From Deltaproteobacteria bacterium (GTDB lineage: Bacteria; Desulfobacterota; Desulfobaccia; Desulfobaccales; 0-14-0-80-60-11), in assembly GCA_003599195.1 (NCBI GenBank), contig QZIZ01000113.1, positions 6,705 through 70,704 of the forward strand: 64,000 nt of DNA, given 5' to 3'. Below the pieces are notes generated by a model that searched no databases, had not been told where the DNA came from, and was given only the letters and a program-made list of their open reading frames with translations. Both the position numbers and the translations under genes were made by a program. Positions 12,715-62,755 of the stretch are shown piece by piece (position 1 is the stretch's first letter; every line of letters begins with the position of its first letter).

Positions 12715-12770
12715 GTCAGTGGCCAGTGGTCAGTGGCCAGTGGTCAGTGGCCAGTGGTCAGTGGTCAGTA
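12715..12770. repeat. Heptamer tandem array (GGCCAGT/GGTCAGT) x8
   Basis: Read directly: gtcagtggccagtggtcagtggccagtggtcagtggccagtggtcagtggtcagt. Confidence 0.95.
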
Positions 12771-12808
12771 AAAACCAAGGTACCTCCTGGAACTACTCCT
12801 TCTAACCT

Positions 12809-12862
12809 CGTTCCCAAGCTCTGCTTGGGAACGCCGATTTCCCGTCCAAGCTCTGCTTGGAC
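12809..12862. repeat. Double-hairpin element (cgttcccaagc-tct-gcttgggaacg, then gtccaagc-tct-gcttggac); second copy at 40623-40668
   Basis: Two perfect short hairpins. The reverse complement matches agcttggacgggaaattggcattcccaagcggagcttgtgaacg at 40623-40668 with only a few mismatches. Confidence 0.9.
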
Positions 12863-12998
12863 ACCACTTTTTCTCCCTCCCCCTGCCCAGAGGGTCCCCG
12901 TTCTCCCCTGCCATTGACTGACGGGGGAGAGGGCTGGGGGCAAGCTTTTCATATTTTACTAGTGCGCCGCAGGCCCAGGAATGGCTGCTAAGAAAATA

Positions 12999-13031
12999 GT
13001 TCCGAGTTCCCGGTTCAAGGTTCAAAGTTTC
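12999..13031. repeat. Heptamer tandem array (GTTCCGA GTTCCCG GTTCAAG GTTCAAA)
   Basis: Read directly. Related to the TTCAAGG arrays at 36751-36873. Confidence 0.85.
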
Positions 13032-13220
13032 TATGGTTAAAATATTAGATAGGCGCCGACGCCAAATAGTTAGCTTCTCTCCCGCTATCCCGGATTGCGG
13101 TTCCGCCCTACGCCTTCAGCCCCGGGGCCGGAGAGTTGCTTTTTCCCGGCAACTCCTGTACAAATTTACCTCAGGAGCGCCTCTGGCAATATATCAGAGG
13201 GAGCAACGGGGGGGAAGAAA

Positions 13221-14054
13221 TTGTTGGCAGGAAAGAAAGTGCTGGTGGTCATGCCCGCGTATAACGCGGCCCTCACCCTGGAACGCACCTTTCAGGACAT
13301 CCCTTTCGACATTGTGGACGAAGTCCTGCTGGTGGACGACGCCTCCCACGACGAGACCCTGGAAGTCGCTCATAAGCTGGGAATCCGCTGCTTCTTGCAC
13401 GAGCGGAATCTGGGCTACGGCCGCAACCAGAAGACCTGCTACACCGAAGCTCTGAAACTGGGGGCGGACATCGTGGTCATGGTCCACCCCGACTACCAGT
13501 ATTCCCCCAAAATCATCCCGGCCCTGGCCGGGTTGGTGGCCAGCGGCGAATACGACGCGGCCCTGGGCTCCCGCATCCTGGGGGGCAAGGCCCGCCAGGG
13601 CGGCATGCCGGTTTATAAATACCTGGCCAACCGTTTCTTGACCGCGTTTCAGAACCTGCTGTTAGGGGCGAAACTCTCGGAATACCACACCGGGTTCCGG
13701 GCCTTTTCCCGGAAGGTGCTGGAGACCCTGCCCCTGTGGGAGAATTCCGACGATTTCCTGTTCGACAACGAGATGTTGTCCCAGACCATCTTTTTCGGGT
13801 TCCGGGTGGGCGAAGCGTCTTGCCCCACCCGCTATTTCGCGGAGGCCTCCTCCATCAATTTTCCCCGGAGCGTCAAATACGGCCTGGGAGTCCTCGCCAC
13901 CTCCGTAAAGGTCTTCCTGCAGCGGCGGAACTGGGGCCAGTTCCGCATCTTCTCTCCTTCAGGACGGGGCTTGATGGATCCTTCTTATTATTCCGAGAGG
14001 ACTCCGCCGCTGGAGTCGCCCCTGACCCCGGGAAATCCTTCCAGCAGTGGATGA
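13221..14054 (+). CDS. Family-2 glycosyltransferase (dolichyl/polyprenyl-phosphate sugar transferase-like)
   Basis: Motifs [28 protein letters not shown] and [10 protein letters not shown]. The track ORF starts at 13095 inside the repeat-rich spacer. I prefer TTG at 13221 after GGGGGAAGA. An ATG at 13251 is also possible. Confidence 0.85.
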
Positions 14055-14113
14055 AAAAAGTTCCAGGTTTCAATTTTTGTAGTGCGCTTTGCGCACCCTG
14101 AAAGTTCTTTAAA

Positions 14114-15079
14114 CTAAACTCCCCCTACCCTACCCTCCTGCAACCCTTCCATCTCATAAAGCTCTGACAAGGTTGCGCCCTGCACCGGGCCGGTTTTCTT
14201 CAGCCAGGTCAGGAACGCCCGGATTTTGCCCACCAATCCTTCCACCGCGGCCTCCGTGGGGAATTGGGGGTTGCCTCCGAGGGCCAGTTCCGAGGAATGG
14301 AGGAACAGGTGCAGCACCCGGCCCCCCCGTCTCCGGTGCAGCCGCGCGGCCAGGCGCATGGAAGGCAGGGGATACCAGACGGGATTAACGCCCGCGGCCA
14401 GGACGTAGGGGAACCAGGAGCGTAAGCGTTCCCCTCTGGCGCCGGGAAAGATCGAGGAGACCCGGTAAACCAGGCGGGCAGAGGCCGGACACACCGCCAC
14501 CATGGTCACCGGCGCCTCCACCAGAGGCGCTGCTTCCGCTGCCGGGAGCTGCAACCGGAAAGGATCGTTGGGCGCCAGGAATTGTTGGGGTCCCCCCACT
14601 TTTTGGGTCAGGGGCACCATGCTGCTGTCTACTATAAAACCCATCGCCGGCAACAGGGACAATAGCCGCAGCCCCCAGTCGAAGCGGCCCATGCGGAAGG
14701 ACCGGGGCGCGACCCCCAATCCCTCCTGGATGGCAGCCGCCAGGTTGGCCAGCTTTTCTTTGAGAACCGGGAGGGGAATCTTCCCGGAGCGCACCGGCTC
14801 GGGTTCGGGGAACTCTACAAAAGGCGGGGTGTTCCAGGGGTGGAGGTGCGCGCCGATCTCGGCGGCGTAACGGTCCCGCCAATAACGCAAGACCTCCCGG
14901 GCCTCCGGGTCCCGGGCCGCATGGTAGGTGGCCAGGAGCGTTAAAGGAAAGCCGAATTCCCGGGGGATGAACTCCAGGCGCCGCAGTTCGGCGACATTGC
15001 TCACCCCCGCGGGCGTCCGGGCGTATTTCCCGGAAAACAGGCCCTCTTCCTCGACGTCGATGCTGATAACCAGTTTCAT
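14114..15079 (-). CDS. Polysaccharide deacetylase-like protein
   Basis: 321 aa. The N-terminal KLVISIDVEEEGLF and later HLHPW segments resemble CE4-like or related deacetylase families. Call is by recollection. Confidence 0.55.
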   Translation of the reverse strand: MKLVISIDVEEEGLFSGKYARTPAGVSNVAELRRLEFIPREFGFPLTLLATYHAARDPEAREVLRYWRDRYAAEIGAHLHPWNTPPFVEFPEPEPVRSGKIPLPVLKEKLANLAAAIQEGLGVAPRSFRMGRFDWGLRLLSLLPAMGFIVDSSMVPLTQKVGGPQQFLAPNDPFRLQLPAAEAAPLVEAPVTMVAVCPASARLVYRVSSIFPGARGERLRSWFPYVLAAGVNPVWYPLPSMRLAARLHRRRGGRVLHLFLHSSELALGGNPQFPTEAAVEGLVGKIRAFLTWLKKTGPVQGATLSELYEMEGLQEGRVGGV

Positions 15080-15098
15080 CTTCTAAATTAAATACCTT

Positions 15099-15215
15099 AC
15101 CACAGAGACACAGAATACACAGAGATTCACAGAGAATATTTTTTAGTTGGCGGGTTCCCCGCCAACCCAAAATAATTTTCCTCTGTGATTCTCTGTGCTC
15201 TCTGTGCCTCTGTGG
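15099..15215. repeat. Nested palindromic element, CACAGAG family (~117 nt) with central hairpin ttggcggg-ttcc-ccgccaa
   Basis: Left arm is ccacagagacacagaatacacagagattcacagag. Right arm is ctctgtgattctctgtgctctctgtgcctctgtgg. Same architecture as 25113-25232 and 34102-34217. Confidence 0.95.
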
Positions 15216-16433
15216 TTAATCTTTTTTACCCCGCAAATCTATCGCCACCTTGACGCTTTCGAAGCGGGGCTTGTTGAAGGCCGTCCGGAAGGCCCGGCAG
15301 TATTCCTCCAGGGGGAAAAGATGGGACAGCAGCCCCTCTTTGGGGTAATCCCCCCGGGCCAGCAGTTCCACGGCCAGTTCGTAGGTGCGGATCTTTCGTC
15401 CCCGGAAGAAGCCGTAGGAAAACATGGAGGAGCCGGTGAGCTTCAGTTCCCGGAACCAGAGGCTGGAGAGGTCCACCTGGTCCAGGGTCCCCGCGGTGCC
15501 CACCAGCACGTAAGTCCCCCTAGCCCGCAAGGCCAACAGGCCTTCCTGCATCGAGGTTTTGCTGCCCACGCAGTCGAAAAAAAAGTCCGCGCCCCCTTCC
15601 ACGTTCCCGCCCCCCAGGATGGTGGGCAGATGCCGGGCGCCCACGGCCGCGGCCAGCTCCTTGCGGCCTGGTTCCATGAGGACCGTCTCCGCTCCCCCGG
15701 CCCGGGCCAGGTCCTCCTGGAACGGGTAACGGGCCACGGCCACCACCCGGGCTTCGGTCTCTAAAGCCTGAAGGATACGGAGCAACTGTTGGCCGATGAT
15801 CCCCGCGCCGTAGACTACCACCAGGTCTCCGGGCTGCGGGAAATTATCCAGCACCGGCTGCAGGGCCGAAGCCAGGGAATCCACCAGGGCCGCGGCCTCG
15901 TCCGGCATACCCTCGGGCAGCCTTACTAACCGGCTGGGATGCGCGGCCATGAATTCGGCCATGCCCCCGCCCGCGTCCCGGTGAAAGCCGATGATGGCCC
16001 CGGCTGATATTCCTCCCCGGGTGAAATTTTCGCAGAGGTTATACTCCCCCTTAGCGCAGAATCGGCAGGGGGCCAGGCCCCGGGTCTCGCAGGGCAGCAC
16101 CGGCTCCACCGCTACCCTCTCCCCTACCCGCCACTCCGAGCCGGGCGGGGCCTCCACCACCTCCCCCACCACTTCATGGCCCAGGACCGCGGGAAAGGAG
16201 GCATACGGCTCCAGCAGCAGGGATTCCACCCCTTTCAACAGCCGGAGGTCCGAGCCGCAGACGCCGCAGATGCGGGTGCGCAAGACGACCCAGTCCGGGC
16301 CGGGCCTGGAGAGGGTAATTTCCCGGAGCCTTAACGGGGCCAGGCTCGGCAAAAAGCTCCGGGGCCGCAGGCGATACCACAGCCGGGCCAGGAGGTACCG
16401 GGGAACGGAACGGGTATAGACCAGGGCTTGCAT
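15216..16433 (-). CDS. Zinc-dependent alcohol/polyol dehydrogenase (MDR family)
   Basis: Catalytic-zinc context CGVCGSDLRLLKG, GHEVVGEVVE, and Rossmann motif VVVYGAGIIGQ. Confidence 0.9.
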   Translation of the reverse strand: MQALVYTRSVPRYLLARLWYRLRPRSFLPSLAPLRLREITLSRPGPDWVVLRTRICGVCGSDLRLLKGVESLLLEPYASFPAVLGHEVVGEVVEAPPGSEWRVGERVAVEPVLPCETRGLAPCRFCAKGEYNLCENFTRGGISAGAIIGFHRDAGGGMAEFMAAHPSRLVRLPEGMPDEAAALVDSLASALQPVLDNFPQPGDLVVVYGAGIIGQQLLRILQALETEARVVAVARYPFQEDLARAGGAETVLMEPGRKELAAAVGARHLPTILGGGNVEGGADFFFDCVGSKTSMQEGLLALRARGTYVLVGTAGTLDQVDLSSLWFRELKLTGSSMFSYGFFRGRKIRTYELAVELLARGDYPKEGLLSHLFPLEEYCRAFRTAFNKPRFESVKVAIDLRGKKD

Positions 16434-16434
16434 T

Positions 16435-16528
16435 GTCAGTAGCCAGTAGTCAGTTGCCAGTTGCCAGTTGCCAGTTGCCAGTTGCCAGTTGCCAGTTGCC
16501 AGTGATCAGTGATCAGTGATCAGTGATT
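16435..16528. repeat. Compound heptamer arrays: GTCAGTA/GCCAGTA, then (GCCAGTT) x7, then (GATCAGT) x3
   Basis: Read directly: gtcagtagccagtagtcagttgccagttgccagttgcc...agtgatcagtgatcagtgatcagtgattgg. Confidence 0.95.
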
Positions 16529-16599
16529 GGGGTCCCTGGCAGTTAAAAGGAATGTGCCCCGAGAGCCGTGCCTTGTCAAGGCCATTTTGGGAAGATTGC

Positions 16600-16627
16600 T
16601 TGGCTATTGAGCTTAAAGGAGTATAAT
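16600..16627 (+). promoter_or_regulatory. Candidate sigma-70 promoter upstream of the radical-SAM gene
   Basis: TTGGCT (16600-16605), a 16-nt spacer and TATAAT (16622-16627). This would leave a ~170-nt leader containing a hairpin (tccccgc...gcgggga) and a heptamer array. Confidence 0.4.
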
Positions 16628-16764
16628 ATAAAATTTTAAGTGATATCGAGACCTCTGTGAAAAAGTCCCCGCACCTGGTTTCCAGAGATAGCGGGGAAAC
16701 CGATGAATCTTGAACTTACGCGGCGCTAAGGGCTATGAACCGGTTTTTAGGCTGAGGTTTCAAA

Positions 16765-16794
16765 CTCGAAACCCGCAACTCGCAACTCGCAACG
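16765..16794. repeat. Heptamer array (ACTCGAA ACCCGCA ACTCGCA ACTCGCA)
   Basis: Read directly. Same unit family as the palindrome arms at 30034-30120. Confidence 0.85.
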
Positions 16795-16803
16795 GGAAAT
16801 ATA

Positions 16804-18044: not shown

Positions 18045-18180
18045 CTATACATAGCGAAATTAAATATTTGCGCATTTTTCACCTTTGCGCTCTCTGCGTC
18101 TCTGCGAGATAAAAAGGTTTCTCGCAGAGACGCAGAGGCGCAGAGAATGCTAAGCGTGATTAATTAATTCGCTCTGTATA
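18045..18180. repeat. Nested palindromic element, CGCAGAG family
   Basis: Core is ctttgcgctctctgcgtctctgcgag-ataaaaaggttt-ctcgcagagacgcagaggcgcagag. Outer arms are tatacatagcgaaattaaat and attaattaattcgctctgtata. Confidence 0.9.
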
Positions 18181-20635: not shown

Positions 20636-20843
20636 TTTTATCTCACGCCAAGACGCAAAGGCGCAAAAAAGATTAACCGCAGAGGCGCAGAGGACACAGA
20701 GTTCCACAGAGAAGAGATTATTGGTTTGGCGCCGGGTGCCAAACCAAAAATATTATCTCTGTGTATCTCTGCGCTCTCTGCGTCTCTGCGGTTAAATATT
20801 TCTTGTGACTTAGCGTCTTAGCGTCTTTGCGTGAGATAAAAAG
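20636..20843. repeat. Three-layer nested palindrome (~208 nt): CGCAAAG arms, CGCAGAG/CACAGAG arms, central hairpin ttggtttggcgccgggtgccaaaccaa
   Basis: Left is tctcacgccaagacgcaaaggcgcaa...accgcagaggcgcagaggacacagag. Right is ctctgtgtatctctgcgctctctgcgtctctgcggt...ttagcgtcttagcgtctttgcgtgaga. Confidence 0.95.
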
Positions 20844-22075: not shown

Positions 22076-22759
22076 TTAGTGCCATGTAGAAGGTAAGATA
22101 ATAACGGCTGCAACTAGTTTGAAGCATATTTCTCCGCGCAGGGGCCCCCCAAGACTAATTGTAAATAAAACTCTCTGTTCCTTCTTCAAGCCAATTTGTT
22201 CTGATGAATAGATTCCATGAGTAAATGGTTTGAGTTTATCTTCCCAAAGGGGATCGGTCACAACCAAATCATAATGAACTCCATTTAATAAAAACCATGC
22301 CCTGGTTTGACGATTACCTGTATAAGATGTTGTTATTTGCCATCTTACATTAATAGGAAATATAAGAGTTAAAGATGCCTTTGCAGGTGTTATTGTAAAT
22401 TCTTCTACTTTAATGCGGTCAGATGTATCCCCAAATAATTCTGGTCCAACATTAATATACTGATTAAGGAGATAGCTATATTTATCTTCGGCTGGTCTCT
22501 GGATCAAGCTCCAAGGCTTAGCTCCGACGAGCCAGTTTTCTGGTTGGTAAGGTTTTGGTACCGGAGTCTGTAAGTGAATCCTCAAAATATCTAAGAGCAT
22601 TGGATCAGTATTATTTTCAAGCACATAATGCCTTCGGCTTAACGCACCATCTTTAGTAACAGGTCTGATCCAACCCTCTCCTTTTGTTCTCAAACCTGCT
22701 ATGCATCTGCCTGACGGTTTTCTGGAATTAGCTAAACAAATTATTTCAAAACCAGGCAC
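22076..22759 (-). CDS. Hypothetical protein (227 aa), N-terminal Cys pair; no family recognised with confidence
   Basis: Sequence MPGFEIICLANSRKPSGRCIAGLRTKGEGWIRPV... AT-rich codon usage. Lies 11 nt downstream of the DUF488 gene. A nucleic-acid-binding (OB-like) fold is only a guess. Confidence 0.7.
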   Translation of the reverse strand: MPGFEIICLANSRKPSGRCIAGLRTKGEGWIRPVTKDGALSRRHYVLENNTDPMLLDILRIHLQTPVPKPYQPENWLVGAKPWSLIQRPAEDKYSYLLNQYINVGPELFGDTSDRIKVEEFTITPAKASLTLIFPINVRWQITTSYTGNRQTRAWFLLNGVHYDLVVTDPLWEDKLKPFTHGIYSSEQIGLKKEQRVLFTISLGGPLRGEICFKLVAAVIILPSTWH

Positions 22760-22770
22760 ATTCTATCTCC

Positions 22771-23208
22771 CTATAAATTAATTATCTCTATTTCACCCCA
22801 TTTATGTTTTAGATACTCCAAAACGAGCCGTCTATGGCAATATTCTGAAGTTGGTTCACTGCATAATAATACGGTAGGAATTTCAAAGATATCAGGCTTG
22901 ATCTTTTCTTCAATTTTCCTTTCTGAAAGTAATTTAATAAAACTTCTTTCGTATTCCCTCCAATCGCCTTTATTTTTCTTATATTCATTTAGTATATTCT
23001 CTGTTGGAGCAAGTAATATTTCATGAATATAATCAGCACCACATAATTCCTTAAGAAAATATTTAAGATCATCACTTTTAGCAAAACCGGATAACTGAGA
23101 AGAGTTATTCAATCGTATATCAATTAGTCTTTTAATCCTATTCTTCCGCAGTATTCCAAAAAAGTCTGCTGCTTTCTTTTTTGTAAATCCTATTGTAAAT
23201 ATTTTCAT
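22771..23208 (-). CDS. DUF488 family protein (paralogue B)
   Basis: IFTIGFTKK...RLIDIRL near the N-terminus and VLLCSEPTSEYCHRRLV near the C-terminus. These match the DUF488 hallmarks (TIGhs...DvR, and llC.E..p..CHR). Confidence 0.8.
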   Translation of the reverse strand: MKIFTIGFTKKKAADFFGILRKNRIKRLIDIRLNNSSQLSGFAKSDDLKYFLKELCGADYIHEILLAPTENILNEYKKNKGDWREYERSFIKLLSERKIEEKIKPDIFEIPTVLLCSEPTSEYCHRRLVLEYLKHKWGEIEIINL

Positions 23209-23224
23209 AATATTGTCCCTTTAT

Positions 23225-23758
23225 TTAAAATAGCGATAATTGTCGCTCGCTATCGCTTTCTATTTCAGGTTTCAACTGATTCTGTGTTTCTAATTCTCCA
23301 TTACCTCGTATGTGATTAACGATAACGCCATTTGCCGCAAGAGTGCGGCCTACTAATAGATAACGATGACATCTATCTGGATTCTCTTCGCTGCACATTA
23401 GTGCAATACGGAATTTTTGAAGACCTTCTTCAATTCTGGCAAGCGCTTCCCTAAAAAATTGTGATTCTGCAAGAGTAGAATAGATTATGTTGCCATTGAT
23501 ATCATAAAATTCTTTTCCTTCTGGCCTTCCCCCCAATTCCCTCCCCAAATATAAGTATTTTATATTATAAGCTTTAACTGCTTTTTTAAGATTATTTATA
23601 TCAAATTGTGGAGCATATTTTGAGTAAGGGTGAGAGCGAATATCAACTAAAACATCAATATGATATTTATTCAATAGCTGAATAAATATAGATAGTTGGT
23701 GGTTTGAATGACCAATTGTAAAAATGACTTTTGAGAAATTGTCTTTAAAATTTGACAT
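23225..23758 (-). CDS. DUF488 family protein (paralogue A)
   Basis: Motifs VIFTIGHSNHQL...VLVDIRSHPYSKYAPQF, YLYLGRELGG and ALMCSEENPDRCHRYLLV. Confidence 0.8.
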   Translation of the reverse strand: MSNFKDNFSKVIFTIGHSNHQLSIFIQLLNKYHIDVLVDIRSHPYSKYAPQFDINNLKKAVKAYNIKYLYLGRELGGRPEGKEFYDINGNIIYSTLAESQFFREALARIEEGLQKFRIALMCSEENPDRCHRYLLVGRTLAANGVIVNHIRGNGELETQNQLKPEIESDSERQLSLF

Positions 23759-23974: not shown

Positions 23975-25102
<1,128 letters not shown>

Positions 25103-25112: not shown

Positions 25113-25232
25113 AACCACAGAGACACAGAGAGCACGGAGTTTCACAGAGGAGAAATATTTTAATTTAGGCGGGGAACCCGCCTAAATTAAAAAAATTCTC
25201 TGTGATTCTCTGTGTCCTCTGTGTCTCTGTGG
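25113..25232. repeat. Nested palindromic element, CACAGAG family, central hairpin aggcgggg-aa-cccgcct
   Basis: Left arm is ccacagagacacagagagcacggagtttcacagagg. Right arm is ctctgtgattctctgtgtcctctgtgtctctgtgg. Near-identical to the copy at 34102-34217. Confidence 0.95.
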
Positions 25233-25726: not shown

Positions 25727-25930
<204 letters not shown>

Positions 25931-25934
<4 letters not shown>

Positions 25935-28660: not shown

Positions 28661-28789
28661 CGGATCGACTTGGGAATATACCTTGATTTTACCGCCGCGC
28701 CAAGAGGCTGGTTTAGTTCAGTCCTGACAAATTATCTAACTTTAATAAAACGAATCGCCGGAAATTGAAAGAGGTTTGTTACAATTTTT

Positions 28790-30004: not shown

Positions 30005-30155
30005 CTCTGCGTCCTCTGCGTCTGCGGTTGAATCGGGTTGCGGGTTGCGGGTTGCGAGTTGCGAGGTAAAAACCACATCTTTCTATAACCCGTACCCCGC
30101 AACTCGTAACTCGTAACTTAATTCACCGCAGAGACACAGAGAGCGCAGAGAAAAA
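30005..30155. repeat. Composite repeat: CTCTGCG segment, heptamer palindrome (GGGTTGC arms 30034-30066 / 30088-30120), CGCAGAG arm 30125-30155
   Basis: Heptamer arms are cgggttgcgggttgcgggttgcgagttgcgagg ... cccgtaccccgcaactcgtaactcgtaac. They are followed by tcaccgcagagacacagagagcgcagag. Confidence 0.9.
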
Positions 30156-30159
30156 ATTG

Positions 30160-30900
30160 CTATCTTCCTTCCACCCTCAGCCAGTCCGTGCGTTTCTTGA
30201 GGTAGCGCACGCCCAGGTATATGATGAGGCTGCCGCCGAACAGCACGGCCCAACGCCAGCCGATCCATAAGCCGCCCCGGCTTAAGAACTCCCCGGCGAT
30301 TTTCAGCGCAGTAAAGACTGCGATCATGGCGAAAAAGCCGCCGTATTCCTTCCTGACCGCGGTTTTTAAGGAAAACGGCAGGTTCGGCCTGACCCAATTG
30401 CCGAATTTGGGGATCAAGGCCGGGGTTTTGCCGGCCCACTGGACAAAAGCCTCGCCGAATTTCTCCCTTAAGAACTCCTCTTCCGCGAACATGATCCTTT
30501 CGTAATAAAGCCAAAGGATCAGGACGATGATCAGGCTGAGCCACCAAAGCCCCCAAAACAGGGCGATTCCCAGCCACATGAGAAAATTCCCTAGATATAG
30601 GGGATGCCGCACCAGGGAATAGACCCCGGTGGTGTTTAAAACGTCCGCCACCTGCCCCTTGACGTTTCTGCCTGAAGTGCCCGCGGGCACGTAGCCGCCG
30701 GTGAAAAAGCGGATGCCCAGCCCGGCAAAGGAAACGGCCAGGCAGAAAATCTCCCAGGACCCGCCCGGCAGGCCGCGGCCGTGGGGATGGCGCAAACCGG
30801 CCAGGGCGAAAAGAAACAGGGCGATCAATAATAAGGGGAGGTAGCTCCGCCAGCGGAACAGCCACTCCCCGGTTTGTCTGAGTTCTTCCCTGAGGGCCAT
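30160..30900 (-). CDS. ICMT/PEMT-family membrane methyltransferase-like protein
   Basis: 246 aa, multi-TM. Contains the VRHPLYLGNF and EEEFLREKFGEAF motifs typical of the isoprenylcysteine carboxyl / phospholipid methyltransferase family. Confidence 0.75.
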   Translation of the reverse strand: MALREELRQTGEWLFRWRSYLPLLLIALFLFALAGLRHPHGRGLPGGSWEIFCLAVSFAGLGIRFFTGGYVPAGTSGRNVKGQVADVLNTTGVYSLVRHPLYLGNFLMWLGIALFWGLWWLSLIIVLILWLYYERIMFAEEEFLREKFGEAFVQWAGKTPALIPKFGNWVRPNLPFSLKTAVRKEYGGFFAMIAVFTALKIAGEFLSRGGLWIGWRWAVLFGGSLIIYLGVRYLKKRTDWLRVEGR

Positions 30901-30906: not shown

Positions 30907-31070
30907 CCGTTTTCTGTTTTCTGTTTTCTGTTTTCCCGTTATTTCTCTGCGCCCTCTGCGTCTCTGCGGTGAATAATTTTTTTTACCGCAGAGACGCAGA
31001 GAGCGCAGAGAGAAAAATAAATACCTGCATAATTCTTGCGTCTTTGCGTCTTGGCGTCTTTGCGTGAGGT
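30907..31070. repeat. Composite repeat: TTTTCTG heptamers, complete CGCAGAG palindrome (30945-31012), CGCAAAG-type array
   Basis: Heptamers: ccgttttctgttttctgttttctgttttcc. Palindrome: ctctgcgccctctgcgtctctgcggtg-aataattttttt-taccgcagagacgcagagagcgcagag. CGCAAAG array: cttgcgtctttgcgtcttggcgtctttgcgtgagg. Confidence 0.9.
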
Positions 31071-31080
31071 TAAATCTTGC

Positions 31081-31860: not shown

Positions 31861-31917
31861 AGTGGTCAGTGGTCAGTGGCCAGAAAGTGATCAGTAATCA
31901 GTGATCAGTGATCAGTG
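31861..31917. repeat. Heptamer arrays (GGTCAGT x2, GGCCAG, then GTGATCA/GTAATCA x4); left arm of a gene-spanning inverted repeat
   Basis: Sequence agtggtcagtggtcagtggccagaaagtgatcagtaatcagtgatcagtgatcagtg. The inverted partner is at 32655-32714. Confidence 0.95.
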
Positions 31918-32571
31918 AAAATCCTGTGGTGGTAAATTTAGTTTCACATCCGGAAAAATTTTCGACATTCGACCCGAAAGTACAACCATATAACATTGGC
32001 ATTCCATGGCAATAGCGCTGCACAGTTCAGGATTATTCAATATCTTCCCGCTTGCATATCCAAGTTCGCCGTCTGGCAGAGCAACAAGATTTTGATAACA
32101 ACTTATTGGATCTCCATGCACCATGGAATTATGGGAGTTGACAATATTCTGGGCTTCATTGTCTGGCACTCCACCTGCCATACTTGCCATCATGGTAGCA
32201 AGCTTTGGCCTTTTATGATAATGCCAACCTTTCTCCCAAAGGGAGACGAATTCAGGGTGGTTATCGAGATATGAAATCGTCGCTGCTCTCTCAATCAGTG
32301 GACGCATTAGAATGAGGGCTGAAAACAAATACCCCTGCCTAATCAACTCCCGAATGCTGAGGGCAATACTTATACCCTGTGGAATGATTTGGCATGCTGC
32401 CCGCTGTAATGGAGAAAGAGAACTGGATTTCTCACGTGTCCATGACGCAACCTTTTGGTTTGACTCCAGAGACCAACAAATAATTCGGTCAAACCATAGG
32501 ACTGATTCAAGCCCAAGATATGGCTCGTTGCCAGGGGTGAAGACCGGGGTTGTTTCCTTACGCCGTATCAT
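31912..32571 (-). CDS. Hypothetical protein (219 aa), helical, lower GC than neighbours
   Basis: The only long ORF in the interval. A hand-counted line gives about 45% GC. No family confidently recognised. The segment IRELIRQGYLFSALILMRPLIERA reminds me of small helical DUF families. Confidence 0.65.
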   Translation of the reverse strand: MIRRKETTPVFTPGNEPYLGLESVLWFDRIICWSLESNQKVASWTREKSSSLSPLQRAACQIIPQGISIALSIRELIRQGYLFSALILMRPLIERAATISYLDNHPEFVSLWEKGWHYHKRPKLATMMASMAGGVPDNEAQNIVNSHNSMVHGDPISCYQNLVALPDGELGYASGKILNNPELCSAIAMECQCYMVVLSGRMSKIFPDVKLNLPPQDFH

Positions 32572-32654: not shown

Positions 32655-32714
32655 TACTGATCACTGATCACTGATCACTGATTACTGATTACTGATTACT
32701 GGCCACTGACCACT
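32655..32714. repeat. Heptamer arrays (CTGATCA x3, CTGATTA x3, CTGGCCA CTGACCA); right arm of the gene-spanning inverted repeat
   Basis: Sequence ctgatcactgatcactgatcactgattactgattactgattactggccactgaccact, which is the reverse-complement organisation of 31861-31917. Confidence 0.95.
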
Positions 32715-34101: not shown

Positions 34102-34217
34102 ACCACAGAGACACAGAGAGCACGGAGTTTCACAGAGAATTGTTTTATTTAGGCGGGGAACCCGCCTAAATAAAATATTTTTCCTCTGTGAATCTTCGTG
34201 TCCTCTGTGCCTCTGTG
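34102..34217. repeat. Nested palindromic element, CACAGAG family (near-identical to 25113-25232)
   Basis: Sequence ccacagagacacagagagcacggagtttcacagag...aggcggggaacccgcct...ctctgtgaatcttcgtgtcctctgtgcctctgtgg. Confidence 0.95.
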
Positions 34218-36751: not shown

Positions 36752-36873
36752 GTTCAAGGTTCAAAGTTCAAGGTTGGCAATGAGCTTCCCGAGAACTTTT
36801 GCGCCCGGGCATTATCATCAGATTTGCGTCGGCCCGTGCCTTGACTTTGAACCTTGAACCTTGAACCTTGAAC
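36751..36873. repeat. Palindrome with TTCAAGG-type heptamer arms
   Basis: Left arm is agttcaaggttcaaagttcaaggt. Right arm is ccttgactttgaaccttgaaccttgaaccttgaact. The loop is about 65 nt. Confidence 0.9.
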
Positions 36874-40486: not shown

Positions 40487-40732
40487 CCTCACGCAAAGAC
40501 GCAAAGGCGCAAATCAAGACGCAAGCATGTAGGTTCATGAAAAGTTCGTAGCGGGCGTCCCGCCCTCACTGATAATCCGTACAGGCTTGAAAGCCTGTAC
40601 TACCGCTTAGAGCTTTTCAGGGCAAGCTTGGACGGGAAATTGGCATTCCCAAGCGGAGCTTGTGAACGAGGGAGTAAGTCCCAAGCGGTCCCTTGACTTT
40701 TACTGGCCACTGGACACTGACCACTGACCACT
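40487..40732. repeat. Composite repeat: CGCAAAG array, GC hairpins, copy of the 12809-12862 element, ACTGRCC heptamer array
   Basis: In order: cctcacgcaaagacgcaaaggcgcaaatcaagacgcaag; gtagcgggcgtcccgccc; gtacaggcttgaaagcctgtac; caagcttggacgggaaattggcattcccaagcggagcttgtgaacg; tactggccactggacactgaccactgaccact. Confidence 0.9.
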
Positions 40733-50891: not shown

Positions 50892-50923
50892 AGTTCCAAG
50901 TTCCAGGTTCCAAGTTCCAAGTT
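50892..50923. repeat. Heptamer array (GTTCCAA/GTTCCAG) x4
   Basis: Sequence agttccaagttccaggttccaagttccaagtt. Confidence 0.9.
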
Positions 50924-57569: not shown

Positions 57570-57838
57570 GATCCCTCCACCCGGCCGGAGACCTGCGCCA
57601 GTTCCTCCGGAACGGTATTTTGCCCCTGCCCGGCCAGCATCCGGTTCAATTCCTCCTGGCACCGCTGCCGCCACTGGGTCAGGAGCTGCACCTGAAAATC
57701 AATGCGGGTGATCCGTTCCTGGAGCAGCTCGGAATGCAGTTTGCCGTTTACTCCCTGGAGCTGGGCCAGTTCCTGCTTTAGTCTGTTGATCTCCTGATCT
57801 TGGAGTCTTTGCGTCTCCGCGCCTTTGCGTGATCTCAT
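57566..57838 (-). CDS. Small coiled-coil protein (phage); start uncertain
   Basis: 90 aa, Gln/Leu-rich heptad-like sequence. The first ~12 codons are encoded by a CGCAAAG-family repeat (tctttgcgtctccgcgcctttgcgtga). Confidence 0.45.
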   Translation of the reverse strand: MRSRKGAETQRLQDQEINRLKQELAQLQGVNGKLHSELLQERITRIDFQVQLLTQWRQRCQEELNRMLAGQGQNTVPEELAQVSGRVEGS

Positions 57839-57849: not shown

Positions 57850-60800
57850 CTACACCAGATAGGTATTAAGCCAGTTAAGCCAGTTCTCCAGAACCTCCCA
57901 GGCCGCGGAGTCGTTCGAGTGAAAGTAATATTCGGCCAGGCGGTAGAAGGTCCAGTATTGGGCCAGGGCGTGGCCCACTTCGGGGTAGGCGCTGCCGTTG
58001 ACCAGTCCCTGGACGATGGACCAGGTATTTTCATATTCCGCGGCGGGCAGCACCCGGCGCTCGTATTTGAAATAGTCCAGGTGGAAGACTGCGCTGGAGC
58101 CGAGATTGAGGTAGGCGGTGTTCAGCAGGCCGTTGCCCACGCCTAAGTTGTTGTTGCCCAGGAGCACACCGTCTTTGATCCGGTAGATCTTGGCGTCCGC
58201 GGGGACCACCATCCAGGTGACCATATGCCAGGAGCCGTCCAGGACACCTGCGATGTCCGAGTAGGAATCCCCGGCCGAAGTTGTCACCTTGAGCTGCAAA
58301 TCCAGGGACCCGGCCGTCTTGGTCTGGACCACCCAGCCGTCCGCGGCCATCTTGTCCGCCACCCAGCGGTAATCCCCGGCCTGGGCGTTGCCCTTGATGA
58401 TCAGGGTGATGGAGAAAGGGCCGGTCCCCGGCTCGAACAGGGCATTGCTGGCCAGGCTGGCGTGGGCCGCGCCGTCGAAGGCGATGGCAGTATTCCCCGG
58501 TTGGCAGACGCCGGTGGCGTAAGCGGGGCTGCCGCTGCTCCAGGTCAGGGTGTGGCCGTGCCCCGAGGCGTCGGTCAAGGCCCCGTTGAAGGGCCAGGCC
58601 CCGCTCACCAGGCCGTAATCCCGGTACTTTTTCCACCAGGAAAAGCGGGTGAAATCCTCCTCGCCGCACAGGGGGATGTTCTCGATGTCGTTCCGGGTAT
58701 GCACCGGCAGCACCGGCCCCTTGACGCCGCCGTAGCGGTTATAAAACTCGTCCTGGGCGTCCCGGTGGAGGTGGAGGTAATTGGTGACCAGATCCAGGCG
58801 GTTTTGCAGATACGGCCCCAGGGGGTGGGCGTAGTGCACCGGCGTCGGCCCCCGCCAGGTGTTCTGGCCGTAAGGGGTGAGGGACACGGCCAGCCGGGGC
58901 GTGTAGGGGTAGGCGTCCCCGGCCTCCAGATTGGCACCGGCGTCGTCCAGCCACCAGGCCGGGGCCTGCTCCAAATCCAGGTTGATCTCCGGGTACTTGA
59001 ACTCGATGAGCCGCAGGCGCTGGGCATTGGTAAAACGGGCGGTGTCGTTGAACCTCACGTCCGTGACCCGGAACGTGGCGTCCCGGTTGGGGTTCGAGGG
59101 CTGCTCGATGCCCACCACCTGGAGGGGGTGGGTCATGGGCCAACTACCCCAATCCAGGTTCATATCCGCGAAATTCACGGTCACCCGGTTCCATTGCCCC
59201 GCGGTCACCGAGGTGTTTTTAACGAAGTACGAGCCGTTGGCGTCCTTCACCATCGTGTTGACATTCACCGAGCCGCCGCCGCTGACTTGGGGATAAATGA
59301 GATAATTTATATTGGTCTTGCCCGTGGAATTGACTTCTGCGGTATTGAGCCCGGTCCAGATGCCCCAGCCGGTGGCCGCGGCGGTGAGCTTCACCTCCAC
59401 CTGCAGGGTGGTGTAGTAGATGTCCCCCTCGATGGTCTCCTGGACTTCCCGGTCCTGCCTGATGATGTCGCTGCTGTCCGGCGCGCCCGCGCTGTACCAG
59501 GACCCCCAGCCGGGCCGCCGCCGGTCCCGGTCGTCAATGAGGTTGTCGATGGTCTTGAACTGGGAAAAATCGATCTCGAACTGGGTCAGTGCCGCATAGC
59601 GATCCGGCAGGGCATGGACAAAGGTATGGTCCGGGCCCCAGGGATCGGCGTCGCCGGGGGCCGAGTCGTTCAGGACCACCAGGAGCCGCCGGGGAAAAAT
59701 CTCCGGATCGCCGGTCATGAAGGTCCAGAAATCCCCGGCCACGAAGTCGGTGCCCGCACCCGGCTCGAAAAAGACCTCCAGGCCGTTCCCCAGGGACACG
59801 GGTGCGTCCGGCCCCCCGGCCTTGCAACCCGTGGCGTTCCAGGTCTGACCCCGGTTATCGGACCATTTAAACCGCTCGGTGCCCAGCTCCCCGGTGGTTT
59901 CGATGTAGACCACGTAATAGAGGCGGTTGCTGCCGGTGTAGATGCCCTTCAGCACCATCGTGGCGCTGCCGCCGTTGGAGGACTTGCAGATGTTATGTAC
60001 CCGGTTGCCCCGGGCCAGGCCCCGGAGCTTGAAGCGCACCTGGCTGATATCGGAAAGGGGGCTGACGCCCAAGCTCCAGTTCATGCCGTAGCCCCACCAG
60101 GCCTGGAAGGTGGTGGCGCTGAAGTCCTTGAGGATCACCCGCAGCGCCCGGGGGCCCTGGGCCGCCTCCGCCAGGCCGGTGTCCTGCTGGTCGTCGTCTC
60201 CCGGATAGATCTCAATGGCGAATTTCTCGTAACCCTGCACCCCCAGGGTGGAATCCCGGTACATCAGAAAGGCCCCGGCGCTCCATTGCTGGCGCTCGAA
60301 GTTGTCCAGCAGCAGCGGCGAGGTGCGGGAGGCCTGGTAGGGATAGAAATTGTCCCAGAGAAACTTGATCAGCCGGGAGTAATCCCGGCCCCGCTCCGGC
60401 CCGGCGAAGGAGAGGACGGCCATCAAGTCCAGGAGCCGGTCCACCGCGAAATCATAGGTGTAATCGTCCCGGCCCCGGAGGGCCGGACGCACGCAAGGCG
60501 TGTTGTTCAGGGCCTGGCCCTTGACCCCCGTCTCCCCGGTGTAATAGAGGTAATAAACCTGCACCACCGTGCCCGGCGCCAGGGGAGTCCCCAGGGTGGC
60601 CACGGTCTGGGTGCCGGAGTTTGCGTAGCTCCCCCCGGTGTAATAATTGGTGAGGTCGCCGGACTCGGGATCGGCCCAGAAGCCGTTCCAGGGAAAGGAC
60701 GTCTCGAATTTCCACACCCCCCGGAGATAGGCCACGCTCCCGCCGCCGGGCAGGGGCGTCTGGATATAGACCTTGCCGTCCGGGGCCACGGCCAGGCTGT

Positions 60801-60909
60801 ACTGCGCGCCGCTCCAGTTGCCGGCGAGGATCTCCATGAGGGGAGCACCCCCCATGTTGTCGAAGACCCAGTTGAACTGCGCGCCGCGCGCCCAGCGAAT
60901 TTCCGGCAT
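57850..60909 (-). CDS. Large phage tail/host-specificity protein with C-terminal LamG (concanavalin-like) domain
   Basis: 1019 aa. The C-terminal segment LTDASGHGHTLTW...FDGAAHASL...FSITLIIKG...DGSWHMVTW...KIYRIKDGVL has the LamG-type pattern. Confidence 0.75.
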   Translation of the reverse strand: MPEIRWARGAQFNWVFDNMGGAPLMEILAGNWSGAQYSLAVAPDGKVYIQTPLPGGGSVAYLRGVWKFETSFPWNGFWADPESGDLTNYYTGGSYANSGTQTVATLGTPLAPGTVVQVYYLYYTGETGVKGQALNNTPCVRPALRGRDDYTYDFAVDRLLDLMAVLSFAGPERGRDYSRLIKFLWDNFYPYQASRTSPLLLDNFERQQWSAGAFLMYRDSTLGVQGYEKFAIEIYPGDDDQQDTGLAEAAQGPRALRVILKDFSATTFQAWWGYGMNWSLGVSPLSDISQVRFKLRGLARGNRVHNICKSSNGGSATMVLKGIYTGSNRLYYVVYIETTGELGTERFKWSDNRGQTWNATGCKAGGPDAPVSLGNGLEVFFEPGAGTDFVAGDFWTFMTGDPEIFPRRLLVVLNDSAPGDADPWGPDHTFVHALPDRYAALTQFEIDFSQFKTIDNLIDDRDRRRPGWGSWYSAGAPDSSDIIRQDREVQETIEGDIYYTTLQVEVKLTAAATGWGIWTGLNTAEVNSTGKTNINYLIYPQVSGGGSVNVNTMVKDANGSYFVKNTSVTAGQWNRVTVNFADMNLDWGSWPMTHPLQVVGIEQPSNPNRDATFRVTDVRFNDTARFTNAQRLRLIEFKYPEINLDLEQAPAWWLDDAGANLEAGDAYPYTPRLAVSLTPYGQNTWRGPTPVHYAHPLGPYLQNRLDLVTNYLHLHRDAQDEFYNRYGGVKGPVLPVHTRNDIENIPLCGEEDFTRFSWWKKYRDYGLVSGAWPFNGALTDASGHGHTLTWSSGSPAYATGVCQPGNTAIAFDGAAHASLASNALFEPGTGPFSITLIIKGNAQAGDYRWVADKMAADGWVVQTKTAGSLDLQLKVTTSAGDSYSDIAGVLDGSWHMVTWMVVPADAKIYRIKDGVLLGNNNLGVGNGLLNTAYLNLGSSAVFHLDYFKYERRVLPAAEYENTWSIVQGLVNGSAYPEVGHALAQYWTFYRLAEYYFHSNDSAAWEVLENWLNWLNTYLV

Positions 60910-60916
60910 TTAGATA

Positions 60917-61001
60917 CCCGTTTTCCGTTTTCGGTTTTCTGTTTTCGGTAAAAAATAAAAAATCATCTTGCGTCTTGGCGCCTTGGCGTCTTTGCGTGAG
61001 G
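60917..61001. repeat. Host-type repeats inside the phage module: TTTTCSG heptamers plus CGCAAAG-type array
   Basis: Sequences cccgttttccgttttcggttttctgttttcgg and cttgcgtcttggcgccttggcgtctttgcgtgagg. Confidence 0.9.
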
Positions 61002-62681
61002 TCAATTCTCCCCCAAATACGCCCGGACCTTGATCTCGCCGCAATCCACCCAGAAGTCAAAGAGGCACCGGGAGCAGATCTCCCGGATGGCCCGGCCCGC
61101 CTCCAGGTCCGCGAAGCAGACGCCGATGTGGTAAAACAGCGTGTCGCTCTTGGCCAGGGCGAAGGCGTCGGCGTTGATGAACTCGCTCAGGCCCACCGCC
61201 GCCAGGATATCCTCGATGATATCCACCGGGTGGGTGGTATCGTCCTTCACCACCCGGGCCTCCACGCTGCCTGCCGCGCCCTTCACCCAGATTTCGCCGC
61301 TGTTTTCAGAAAAGATCACGCCCTGGCGGCTGTCGTCGTCCTGGACCCAGACCGAGGTAATGGCCTGGAACGGCGCGCCCGGAATCTTGTAGTGCACCAC
61401 CTTGGCCTGGGCGGTGATGATCCACTGGTCCCCGGACACCAGGTCCGTGCCCGGCGCGCTCTCGAAGTAAACCTCCAGGCCGTTTTCCAGGGTCACCTGG
61501 TTGCCCTGGCCCTCGGTGGTGATGCCGGTCTTTTCCCAGGTCTGGCCGTTGTCCTTGGACCAGCGGAAGGTGGCCGCGCCCACCTCCCCGGTGGAATCCG
61601 CCTGCACCAGGTAATTGACGTCCGCCTGGCCGGAGTATTTGGTCTGATCCACCACGTGCAGGCTGGCCACGCCGCTGCCGATCTTCACCACCGTGCAGCT
61701 CGCATCCGTGGTGCCGGTGGACTCCGCCTTGGCCCGGTAGTAGCCCCGCATGAAGGGCCTTTTCGTGCCGTCCGCATCCGGCACGCCGATCTTTTTGTCC
61801 AGGAGAATGCGGATGTAATCGTCGGTCTCCAGGTGGGCCAGGTGCGCACCCTCCCAGGCGTGGGCCATCCCCGAGATGGTCTGCAACTGGCCGATGTAGA
61901 CGAGCTGCCACTCCACTTGGCCGCCCGGCAGCTCGTAGCCGTGATAGAGCTTGAGCTGCTTCTTGTACCAGGGAATGGCCCGGAGATAGAAGTTGGGGCC
62001 GCCCGGAATCCACTGGCGGGAGCGGTTGTCCAGCACCAGGCGGTTGCTGCCGGTGCGCAGGTTCTGAAAGTCTATGGCCATTTCCAGGTTGACGTCGCCG
62101 GGGCTGAAGATCTCGCTCTCCGGCAGCAGCATCTTGCCGGTGAGGATGAACTGCTGGAGATTCCCCGGAAACTCGCCGTCACTGGCGTAGCTGTCGTAGC
62201 CGGGATCAGGCGCGCTGTCCACCGCGTAAGCGGAGTAGGCGTCCGCGTCCCCGGCCTCATCTACAGCCCAAGCCCTGATGGTGGAATTCAGATCCACCTT
62301 TACCTGGTAGTATTGGCTCAGGTCGTATTCGCCCCCGGAGGTGACCGGTACCCAGGAAGCCCCGGCCACACCCTCATAAGTCGCCGCAGTCCTAAGCGAC
62401 ACGGCCACGGTCATATACCCCGCCTGGTCGATCCAGGCGGGGGCGGCCAGGTTGGGGGTGTAGGCCTGCATCACCGGCGAGATCCAGGAGCCGGTCAAGA
62501 AGTACCCGGCCTGCATGGCCAGCTTGCCTGCTTCGCCGCCATACTCGGTATTGGTAAACGTCCCCCCGCTTCCGGCCAGGCCCAGGTCCAGGTCGAAGGG
62601 ATAGATCACCGCCCGCACCCGGGGCTTGGCCCCCCGGGGCCGGGCTTCTTCCTGGAGGTAGTTGGCGGTGGCTTCTCGCAT
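61002..62681 (-). CDS. Phage tail structural protein (559 aa)
   Basis: A long ORF between the small tail protein and the 1019-aa protein. No specific motif recognised. Confidence 0.65.
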   Translation of the reverse strand: MREATANYLQEEARPRGAKPRVRAVIYPFDLDLGLAGSGGTFTNTEYGGEAGKLAMQAGYFLTGSWISPVMQAYTPNLAAPAWIDQAGYMTVAVSLRTAATYEGVAGASWVPVTSGGEYDLSQYYQVKVDLNSTIRAWAVDEAGDADAYSAYAVDSAPDPGYDSYASDGEFPGNLQQFILTGKMLLPESEIFSPGDVNLEMAIDFQNLRTGSNRLVLDNRSRQWIPGGPNFYLRAIPWYKKQLKLYHGYELPGGQVEWQLVYIGQLQTISGMAHAWEGAHLAHLETDDYIRILLDKKIGVPDADGTKRPFMRGYYRAKAESTGTTDASCTVVKIGSGVASLHVVDQTKYSGQADVNYLVQADSTGEVGAATFRWSKDNGQTWEKTGITTEGQGNQVTLENGLEVYFESAPGTDLVSGDQWIITAQAKVVHYKIPGAPFQAITSVWVQDDDSRQGVIFSENSGEIWVKGAAGSVEARVVKDDTTHPVDIIEDILAAVGLSEFINADAFALAKSDTLFYHIGVCFADLEAGRAIREICSRCLFDFWVDCGEIKVRAYLGEN

Positions 62682-62688
62682 TAAACTC

Positions 62689-62755
62689 GTAGGGCGGGCG
62701 TCCCCGCCCGCCCTTTAATCCTTGCGTCTTGGCGAGTTTGCGTCTTTGCGTGAGG
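62689..62755. repeat. GC hairpin gtagggcgggcgtccccgcccgcc plus CGCAAAG-type array
   Basis: The hairpin recurs at 21938-21961 and 40548-40565. The array is ccttgcgtcttggcgagtttgcgtctttgcgtgagg. Confidence 0.9.

Follow-up and report, generated by a model that had tools for sequence, protein, structure and literature searches.

Intergenic arrays of tandem heptamers have been published for cyanobacteria, Xanthomonas and other bacteria, where both the over-representation of heptamers in spacers and the presence of arrays next to gene starts are described without an explanation (PMC4692102; bioRxiv 10.1101/2022.06.06.494920). The closest published description of the paired repeats that concern us is that of Geobacter metallireducens, in which 24, 21 and 8 pairs of sites lie on opposite strands at variable distance; these sites, with units of four tandem octamers GTTGCTYN, three TCTCCGTS[Y] or five heptamers MTYCTGA, are read as binding sites of unidentified global regulators (IHF/HU) (Aklujkar et al. 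2009, PMC2700814). Here, we describe a family of long, nested palindromes built from 7- and 8-nt tandem units in the spacers of a contig from a deltaproteobacterium of the sulfate-reducer type (QZIZ01000113.1, positions 6,705 to 70,704 of the forward strand, assembly GCA_003599195.1; this whole stretch of 64,000 nt is hereafter the window). The repeats keep to the spaces between genes, their modules have a fixed geometry and occur across bacterial phyla and in phages, arms of the same kind bracket GxxExxY genes in a defined orientation, and between related genomes the palindromes turn over while their outer layers persist. We lean towards reading these spacers as mosaics of heptamer microsatellites and gene-less arms of a GxxExxY cassette, akin to the selfish repeats known as repetitive extragenic palindromic (REP) sequences, bacterial interspersed mosaic elements (BIMEs) and miniature inverted-repeat transposable elements (MITEs).

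The palindromes came to notice in an earlier reading of the window (the original prediction), which counted some 17 array-bearing spacers, a figure close to that obtained on our gene map, where at least one array lies in 18 of the 41 spacers. This map consists of the longest open reading frames (ORFs) corrected by third-position G+C (GC3) and Pfam, and leaves 89% of the window coding and 11.3% non-coding. Tandem Repeats Finder (TRF) reports arrays of period 7 to period 10 at every place that had been named, and together with our own scans it recovers all of the listed unit types and GC hairpins. Thirteen of the 15 strict period-7/8 arrays fall in the non-coding 11.3% (binomial P = 4e-11), and 53 of 83 CRCRGAG/CTCYGYG heptamers are intergenic (P = 7e-30), with a density between genes at least 12 times that within them; one array, at 24436-24469, lies inside ribD and is translated. 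All nine of the palindromes originally cited fold as a single long hairpin (z = -5.5 to -15 against dinucleotide shuffles). Two copies described as nearly identical, 25113-25232 and 34102-34217, have a measured identity of 85%, and it was too strong to say that arrays almost always occur as inverted pairs, since about nine palindromes stand beside about ten solo arrays, namely K arms (defined below) at 31036, 40489, 57805, 60966 and 62722 and heptamer arrays at 12711, 16433, 16763, 40702 and 50892. With these corrections the palindromes are confirmed and the first interpretation of them is partly supported; what it treated as one family lumps together three things, O arms, K arms and true heptamer microsatellites. 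At the gathering score, Rfam has 0 matches over the whole window.

O and K arms are modules of ~30-40 nt in which ACC is followed by three or four 7-nt cores of the form CRCNRAG, joined by short purine linkers. The O arm runs ACC, CRCAGAG, R, CRCAGAG, RN, CRCRGAG, NNN, CACAGAG; its cores are CACAGAG or CGCAGAG, and their spacing from the ACC end is 8, 9 and 10 nt in ten of ten four-unit copies, and 8 and 9 or 8 and 8 in three-unit copies. This uneven spacing excludes an origin by slippage and holds the O arm to a single pairing register, so that the multi-register pairing first proposed for all of the stems applies to the true heptamer arrays only. The K arm reads (A)CC-TCA-CGCAAAG-A-CGCCAAG-A-CGCAAAG..., with a spacing of 8 and 8 nt in five of five cases, and terminates in A-runs. 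All seven K arms scored for position lie in the sense orientation 0-16 nt past a stop codon, two of them overlapping the stop codon itself; on the sense strand, the K arms past stop codons contain no T. Heptamer arrays are made mostly of CAGTNNN units, others being GAAAACN, GTTCAAG, AGTTCCA, AACTCGC and AGCTTTC, and lie outermost in the spacers, in most cases paired with a complementary array, with a variable number of units. Those directly 5' of gene starts (12711, 16433, 16763, 30909, 31861, 40702, 60918) are C/A-rich and G-poor on the sense strand of the gene, with units ACTGRCC, CTGGCAA, AACTCGC and GAAAACN.

A palindrome consists of an inverted pair of modules around a short GC hairpin or loop, and two arms around such a hairpin give palindromes of 115-120 nt. 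Further layers may surround or replace this arrangement, with the order K[O[hairpin]O']K' at 20636-20843, H[O[hairpin]O']H' at 25727-25934 (H being a heptamer array) and the reverse, O'[H..H']O, at 30005-30155. The elements of the window are listed here, with a strand for those that were assigned one; loci of related genomes, designated L001 to L005 and L126, are introduced below.

12711-12769, plus strand: solo heptamer array, (CAGTGGY) x8, directly upstream of the minus-strand gene 11331-12689 (TRF)
15099-15215: O palindrome, consisting of an O arm, a TTGGCGGGTTCCCCGCCAA hairpin and a complementary O arm (z = -12.3)
16433-16527, plus strand: heptamer arrays (TTGCCAG) x10 and (CAGTGAT) x4, abutting an annotated Zn-dehydrogenase start (TRF)
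16763-16793, plus strand: heptamer array (AACTCGC) x4, directly upstream of a radical-SAM/SPASM gene (TRF)
18045-18180: palindrome whose core is a complementary-O/O pair (CTCTGCG/CGCAGAG, 18086-18146) around an AT loop (z = -11.2)
20636-20843: three-layer palindrome between convergent genes, in the order K, O, hairpin TTGGTTTGGCGCCGGGTGCCAAACCAA, complementary O, complementary K (z = -14.9)
24436-24469, minus strand: (GAAAACC) x5 array, in frame inside ribD, encoding the loop KTENRKPKTEN (array scan and translation)
25113-25232: O palindrome with a AGGCGGGGAACCCGCCT centre in the nrdR-ribD spacer (z = -15.1; orthologous copies in L003 and L001)
25727-25934: three-layer palindrome between glyA and nrdR, with an AGCTNNC heptamer layer, O arms and a GGCCCTTGGCGCAAAGCGCCAAGGGCC hairpin (z = -14.9; compared with L001-L003)
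30005-30155: nested palindrome of the opposite order, complementary O, (CGGGTTG)n, loop, (TAACTCG)n, O (z = -11.0)
30909-31072: composite spacer of three parts, namely (GTTTTCT) x4 before the methyltransferase start, a head-to-head complementary-O/O pair (30944-31012) and a solo K arm directly past the etfB stop (31036-31072)
31861-31918: left heptamer arm (AGTGGTC/AGTGATC) of a ~850-bp inverted pair around gene 31912-32571 (TRF; 33 nt, 97% complementary)
32656-32714: right heptamer arm (ACTGATC/ACTGATT/ACTGGCC) of the pair around gene 31912-32571 (TRF)
34102-34217: O palindrome in the yceD-rpmF spacer, of the same sub-family as 25113 (z = -14.5)
36751-36873: heptamer palindrome, (GTTCAAG)n ... 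(CCTTGAA)n, after feoB (z = -5.5)
40489-40525, plus strand: solo K arm, 11 nt past a nitroreductase stop
40702-40732, plus strand: solo heptamer array (ACTGRCC) x4 (TRF)
50892-50923, plus strand: solo heptamer array (AGTTCCA) x4.6 (TRF)
57805-57835, minus strand: solo K arm, sense, just past the stop of gene 57850-60909
60918-61003, minus strand: (GAAAACN) x4 directly upstream of the start of gene 57850-60909, and a K arm overlapping the stop of gene 61002-62681
62722-62757, minus strand: solo K arm abutting the stop of gene 62757-63119

The O arm is found far outside this lineage. Scans for the exact 26-nt pattern ACCRCAGAGRCRCAGAGRNCRCRGAG, run on one genome per species and separately on viral contigs, return at least 120 matches in species genomes, from more than 12 phyla and including isolates, and at least 120 in viral contigs. 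Among the matches listed are Acidobacteriota, Chloroflexota, Planctomycetota, Verrucomicrobiota, Armatimonadota, Kiritimatiellia and Cyanobacteria, together with Firmicutes, beta- and gamma-proteobacteria and SAR324; the isolates listed include Nostoc, Calothrix PCC 7103 and Fischerella PCC 7414, and the complete genome of Sorangium cellulosum So0157-2 is also there. In viruses, O palindromes are positioned directly after portal-like and directly before capsid-like proteins, the likeness being judged by length and sequence only, with no family search. Phage-like contigs from IMG/VR that carry O palindromes include L138, L147, L173 and L182, among others, some having at least eight arms in 37 kb. 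In four Acidobacteriota loci (L009, L014, L048 and L057), the arms stand head-to-head in divergent spacers, with their ACC ends 20-25 nt apart and each arm pointing at its downstream gene, an arrangement opposite to that of most palindromes in the window.

Across 23 palindromes from many phyla, the A/G choice within cores agrees between the two arms in 87-96% of cases, compared with ~50% in shuffles, which is largely a matter of an element-wide flavour, and the linker positions show no covariation between arms. As the linkers do not covary, an arm is to be seen as a copy of a module and not as half of a stem selected for perfect pairing, and selection of that kind is rejected. A blastn search of a palindrome against plasmids gave no match, possibly an effect of the low-complexity filter.

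In the flanks of several modules, an ORF starting ...IGAAIEVH lies downstream, and clustering of the ORFs near modules yields one recurrent family, TIGR04256 GxxExxY / PF13366 PDDEXK_3; no transposase family recurs beside the arms in the genome or viral loci. A GxxExxY gene stands beside the module in eight of 120 loci among the matches listed, and at L099 an arm on one side and its complement on the other enclose it exactly. The association also holds in reverse. In 74 metagenome-contig GxxExxY loci with enough flank, chosen by protein similarity alone, an upstream arm (ACC and two or more units) in sense orientation is found at 41, a downstream complement at 39 and the two together at 31, compared with 3 and 5 in the wrong-orientation controls. 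The units at these loci have the flavours CACAGAG, CGCAGAG, CACGGAG, CGCCGAG, CGCGGAG and, in a few, CGCAAAG, at spacings of (8,9), (8,8) or (9,9). Because the O arms of the window match those that bracket GxxExxY genes, we regard them as cassette arms without the gene, and by their flavour the K arms would seem to be the same. The geometry of the arms fits a GxxExxY hairpin cassette, for which no published description was found and of which the copies in the window, judged from sequence comparison, would be gene-less derivatives only. A sequence search of the PDB with a GxxExxY profile found no match, and the papers listed as mentioning GxxExxY are, by their titles and abstracts, not about the repeats.

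How these elements behave over time can be followed in related genomes. By its NrdR homologues the window falls in Thermodesulfobacteriota, near genomes labelled Desulfobaccales or Syntrophobacterales, although exact-protein look-ups found neither its own NrdR nor its own DUF5677-like protein (see below) on record. Syntenic loci were obtained from three independent sources: L001 (JGI; NrdR 93% identical to that of the window), L002 (NCBI GCA_049322315.1; 92%) and L003-L005 (ENA; 95%), with L126 (NCBI GCA_030018495.1) as a more distant relative. Gene order from feoB to ribD is conserved. As the JGI, NCBI and ENA assemblies show the same architecture at orthologous sites, the repeats are not an assembly artefact; both assembly and polishing artefacts are ruled out by the agreement of the three independent assemblies and by the many copies held in lake and subsurface metagenomes. 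Contigs of four such metagenomes pile up on the repeat-bearing bins and contain many O palindromes with other centres.

Between glyA and nrdR, all relatives have the outer layer of AGCTNNC heptamers. Inside it, the window and L003 have O arms and a GC hairpin, L002 has O arms trimmed on the inner side around a central (TGGCCAG)n palindrome, and L001 has a plain hairpin and a REP-like element without O arms. The nrdR-ribD spacer holds an O palindrome in the window and L003. In L001 the hairpin at the centre is retained and the units are spaced almost alike, with CACCAAG in place of CACAGAG in seven of the eight units of the two arms and CACAAAG in the eighth; L002 has a different composite with the remnant of one O arm only. 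Between yceD and rpmF, the O palindrome is confined to the window, and L001 and L002 have a REP-like pair (GGGCGAAC...GTTCGCCC) in that slot. The spacer between the PEMT-type methyltransferase gene and etfA, a 165-nt nested palindrome in the window, is a repeat-free 28 nt in L003. From etfB to this methyltransferase gene, a K arm opens the spacer past the stop codon in all relatives, followed before the next start by (GAAAACN)n, with n = 4 in the window, ~9 in L002 and no array in L001. The acd-etfB spacer of L002 contains, in a T-tract, a K palindrome of ~70 nt that L001 lacks, the flanks being 88-93% identical; an automated screen of all fetched loci for filled and empty sites, in which most pairs were overlapping pieces of the same contigs, gave this as its sole informative case. 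Centres therefore turn over more than outer layers in these spacers, and arm flavour can shift in concert.

The comparison of orthologous spacers, proposed with the original prediction, has in this way brought out polymorphism in both presence and unit number, and it bears out two earlier ideas, that of a layered, modular family whose architecture is retained while units and centres are swapped, and that of rearrangement hot spots, supported by gain, loss and replacement at orthologous sites. The same spacers yield further observations. A REP-like palindrome family, GGGCGAACACAAGGTTCGCCC, often paired, occurs in L001 and L002 (L001:1880-2085, L002:4591-4770) where the window has O palindromes, and has no copy in the window. 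L002 contains one composite block twice (3669-3810 and 10472-10721), made of a GGGTGGGCACTGCCCACC hairpin, a T-tract, a K arm ...CTTTGCGAGAAATTTTT and (CTGRCCA)n, so blocks larger than single modules are copied between spacers. The etfA-fabG spacer (window 28661-28789; L001:6851-7000; L002:6903-7020; L003:1996-2123) is free of repeats and has a conserved motif, TTGAAAAAATTGTAACAAACCTCTTTCAATTTCCGG...CGTTTTAT, in all relatives, probably a genuine regulatory site ahead of fabG-acpP.

If the spacers are mosaics of the kind we favour, O and K arms would behave as do REP sequences, REPINs (paired REP sequences) and MITEs, appearing, vanishing, replacing one another, swapping centres and nesting, and the heptamer arrays, like the short tandemly repeated repetitive (STRR) sequences, would change their unit number by slippage. 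Copies would be spread or homogenised by copying between sites that share arms, probably set off by a cut in the hairpin or cruciform that a GxxExxY nuclease would make in trans or, alternatively, a hairpin-cleaving host enzyme of the SbcCD type. The centre of the palindrome would be the preferred point of entry, and cleavage at the tip followed by repair from another copy could account for the faster turnover of centres than of outer layers. Several observations pull the other way. Neither a target-site duplication nor a filled/empty pair at >95% flank identity was found among the fetched loci, and replacement by recombination would fit as well as transposition. The polarity of the K arms is not required of a purely selfish element. 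The window and the relatives' loci L001-L005 contain no GxxExxY gene, all copies in the window being gene-less; the query proteins of the reverse test came from arm-bearing loci, so the 55% found there may be too high for the family as a whole; and the heptamer arrays and the cassette may be unrelated.

The palindromes might instead be punctuation of RNA selected by the host, serving termination, insulation, protection of 3' ends or the uncoupling of cistrons by RNase III. Their hairpins are very stable (z down to -15), they lie strictly at gene boundaries, their outer arms persist at orthologous sites, and in phages their position between portal-like and capsid-like genes resembles that of T7-type processing sites; the sense orientation of all seven K arms just past stop codons is the strongest hint. 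Against this, G-U pairs favour the sense strand by only 70 to 54, which is not significant, while solo O arms in tandem gene contexts are 20 in sense and 23 in antisense orientation. Solo arms number 21 between convergent and 10 between divergent genes. The terminator role that had been suggested is not borne out: terminator-like sites number 40 compared with 26.7 +/- 6.3 in shuffles, which is not significant, only the palindrome centre at 25158-25192 scores as an intrinsic terminator, U-tracts are not a feature of the family, and several palindromes lie inside conserved operons (yceD-rpmF, acd-etfB-etfA and glyA-nrdR-ribD). Turnover is also fast between relatives at ~90% nucleotide identity, with an empty orthologous spacer among them, and a structural role would leave a 26-nt sequence shared across phyla unexplained. 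We therefore hold it unlikely that RNA punctuation is what the family is for, though a role in processing or 3'-end protection is perhaps likely as a secondary effect, in that a transcribed palindrome would fold into a long, imperfect hairpin, which may shield 3' ends or act as a processing site. Among the metatranscriptomes, the only one sharing words with the window is without this organism.

Two further explanations, each of which we consider quite improbable, deal with the arrays as DNA. Tandem 7- or 8-bp operators are bound by ribbon-helix-helix repressors such as omega of pSM19035 and MetJ, and the arms could likewise be cooperative sites for a protein of this type or for a nucleoid-associated one. 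Conserved cores with freely varying linkers at a fixed spacing would suit such sites, as would the opposite-strand pairs at variable distance, which match classes 1-3 of G. metallireducens. Yet the module is carried by phages and by more than 12 phyla, which have no candidate protein in common; arrays fill close to half of the spacers, at 3' ends and within operons as well; and close relatives have gained and lost arrays while their genes stayed the same. The second explanation would need nothing beyond neutral microsatellites, slipping in place in AT-rich spacers, with pairing as a by-product of inverted duplication. This agrees with the unit-number polymorphism of (GAAAACN)n, with the different lengths of (CTGRCCA)n arms in the window, L001, L002 and L126, with the great diversity of heptamer units and with the ascription of heptamer over-representation in bacteria to slippage (PMC4692102). 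For O and K arms it is refuted, spacings of 8, 9 and 10 nt being incompatible with slippage, and it does not accommodate the same 26-nt module in different phyla and phages or the oriented association of arms with GxxExxY genes.

Returning to selfish repeats as the preferred reading, we would go one step further, and only tentatively, in suggesting that CRCNRAG hairpins together with GxxExxY genes of the PD-(D/E)XK type are an undescribed minimal selfish element, borne by phages and spread across phyla. The ~125-aa nuclease might recognise the tandem-core arms as a hairpin or cruciform and cut at or near the tip, with repair from an arm-sharing copy moving inner content between sites. Such an element, if real, would explain the interchangeable centres, the nested layers and the concerted change of arm flavour. 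Heptamer palindromes could then be parallel arms or entry points for other small cargo, a possible example being the DUF5677-like gene found between heptamer arms in the window and in one relative. Should the arms be ends of a nuclease cassette, few bacterial repeat systems still lacking a described mechanism would be as widespread, and the large function-unknown family TIGR04256/PF13366 would gain a role. Within essential operons, stable hairpins with 50 paired positions should affect mRNA processing.

The DUF5677-like gene (31912-32571) lies between acd and etfB, has low GC3 and encodes 219 aa with a weak DUF5677 match below the Pfam threshold. In L001 and L002 the gene is missing and the two heptamer arms are adjacent around a GGGTGGGCACTGCCCACC hairpin, and in four metagenomes depth falls to zero over 32153-32463. 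L126 has a DUF5677-like gene at the same site (L126:1329-1982), its stop codon inside the 3' arm. As the gene is present in the arm-bearing spacer here and in L126 and absent from L001 and L002, such spacers are taken to be entry points for small foreign genes into conserved operons, acd/etfB being the example, and the gene itself has the look of a small mobile one that inserts between the genes of conserved operons. It is not a general partner of heptamer arms, an idea rejected on the ground that distant homologues (for example L127:3001-3657), located between ybaB and recR or elsewhere, have no arms.

A second gene between repeats, at 30160-30900 between etfB and etfA, encodes an LmtA-like PEMT/ICMT membrane methyltransferase, the match to the lipid A Kdo2 1-phosphate O-methyltransferase family being below the NCBIfam cut-off. 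It is present in L001-L003 and absent from L126, where etfB and etfA are adjacent. The O arms around it (30121-30156 and 30939-30974, 92% complementary) were considered as cassette ends and rejected, since each flanking spacer contains a complete palindrome and relatives have the gene without arms. In ribD, the array (GAAAACC)5 is translated within the RibD reductase domain; related loops, KTENGKRKTEN and AENRKPKTGD, occur in L002 and L003, which makes this an old array kept in frame. Beyond ribD, a three-gene island (22076-23758; ~35% G+C, GC3 0.23-0.29) separates it from a glycosyltransferase gene; the slot is taken by a GNAT acetyltransferase in L002, and the gene that follows ribD in L003 is a different one.

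For annotation, the arms matter in that they create spurious ORF starts and N-terminal extensions (peptides of the LCVLCVSVV and HREHRGHR type) and inflate the counts of 'hypothetical proteins' in metagenome-assembled genomes of many phyla. The spurious starts predicted for the window are real, with VLSVSLWLSLF before the true ribD start, probably at 25102 and not 25135, and VKLRALCVSVVK before rpmF.

Set against the established classes, the family was at first not recognised as a described one. This is right for CRISPR (between units there is no gap or one of 1-3 nt, and arrays have 3-10 units and form inverted pairs) and goes too far in view of the intergenic heptamer arrays and the Geobacter paired sites already in print. 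An integron cassette array does not fit either, as the genes between the palindromes (yceD, rpmF, acd, etfBA, glyA, nrdR and ribD) are housekeeping genes in conserved synteny, although no attC covariance model was run. MITEs share the inverted arms; the flanks here, TTAACC...GGTTAA and TTCACC...GGTGAA, extend the inverted repeat and are not direct duplications, no transposase family recurs beside the arms in the genome or viral loci, where GxxExxY/PDDEXK_3 alone does so, and no transposase was found among the window genes scanned, which were not every ORF.

The likeness to REP sequences, BIMEs and REPINs, with their REP-associated tyrosine transposases (RAYTs), goes further. Both are abundant intergenic palindromic repeats at gene ends and in operons, with inverted doublets, a mosaic make-up, lineage-specific flavours and a single small gene bracketed by inverted copies. 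The unit differs, a REP being an imperfect palindrome of 20-40 nt with a 5' tetranucleotide, whereas the arms here are direct tandem 7-nt cores and not short palindromes with a GTAG-type motif, forming a hairpin only with a second, inverted arm. The bracketed gene belongs to a PD-(D/E)XK family and not to the Y1 HUH transposases, and the same arm sequence crosses phyla, unlike the lineage-specific REPs.

Among heptamer repeats, STRR units as described by Mazel et al. in 1990 reportedly have the CAGTNNN form of most units here, and Elhai et al. (2008) are said to have found small dispersed repeats of 21-27 nt in Nostoc nested in tandem heptamer arrays and in copies of themselves. The latter would resemble the present case in their nested insertions and differ in sequence, in size and in that no bracketing of a gene is reported for them. 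Only the heptamer arrays of the window have the contiguous intergenic heptamers and unit-number variation of long simple sequence repeats (LSSRs) and STRRs. Cyanobacterial STRRs are, like them, diverse tandem heptamers concentrated in spacers, often next to starts and sometimes in inverted pairs (PMC4692102; bioRxiv 10.1101/2022.06.06.494920). The host here differs, being of a Thermodesulfobacteriota lineage with ~60% G+C, and its arrays are orderly, usually at both edges of a spacer, complementary to each other and enclosing other modules.

The G. metallireducens sites share the architecture of intergenic pairs on opposite strands at variable distance with three to five tandem units of 7-9 nt. 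Compared by unit only, class 2 (TCTCCGTS[Y]) complements CACGGAGA, which is among the units of the O arms, with CACGGAG(A) units in the window at 25133, 25798 and 34121, and class 3 comprises pairs of heptamer sites 70-115 bp apart. The Geobacter sites differ in being described in supplementary alignments only, with no link to other phyla, to phages or to a gene, and with no nesting reported. A full-text search for literal arm strings gave no match in the library searched. The family thus looks to be barely described and not wholly undescribed, its mechanism of spread being inferred; compared with the published systems, what appears to be new, on the strength of the sequence comparisons made here, is the cross-phylum reach of the arms and their partnership with a GxxExxY gene.

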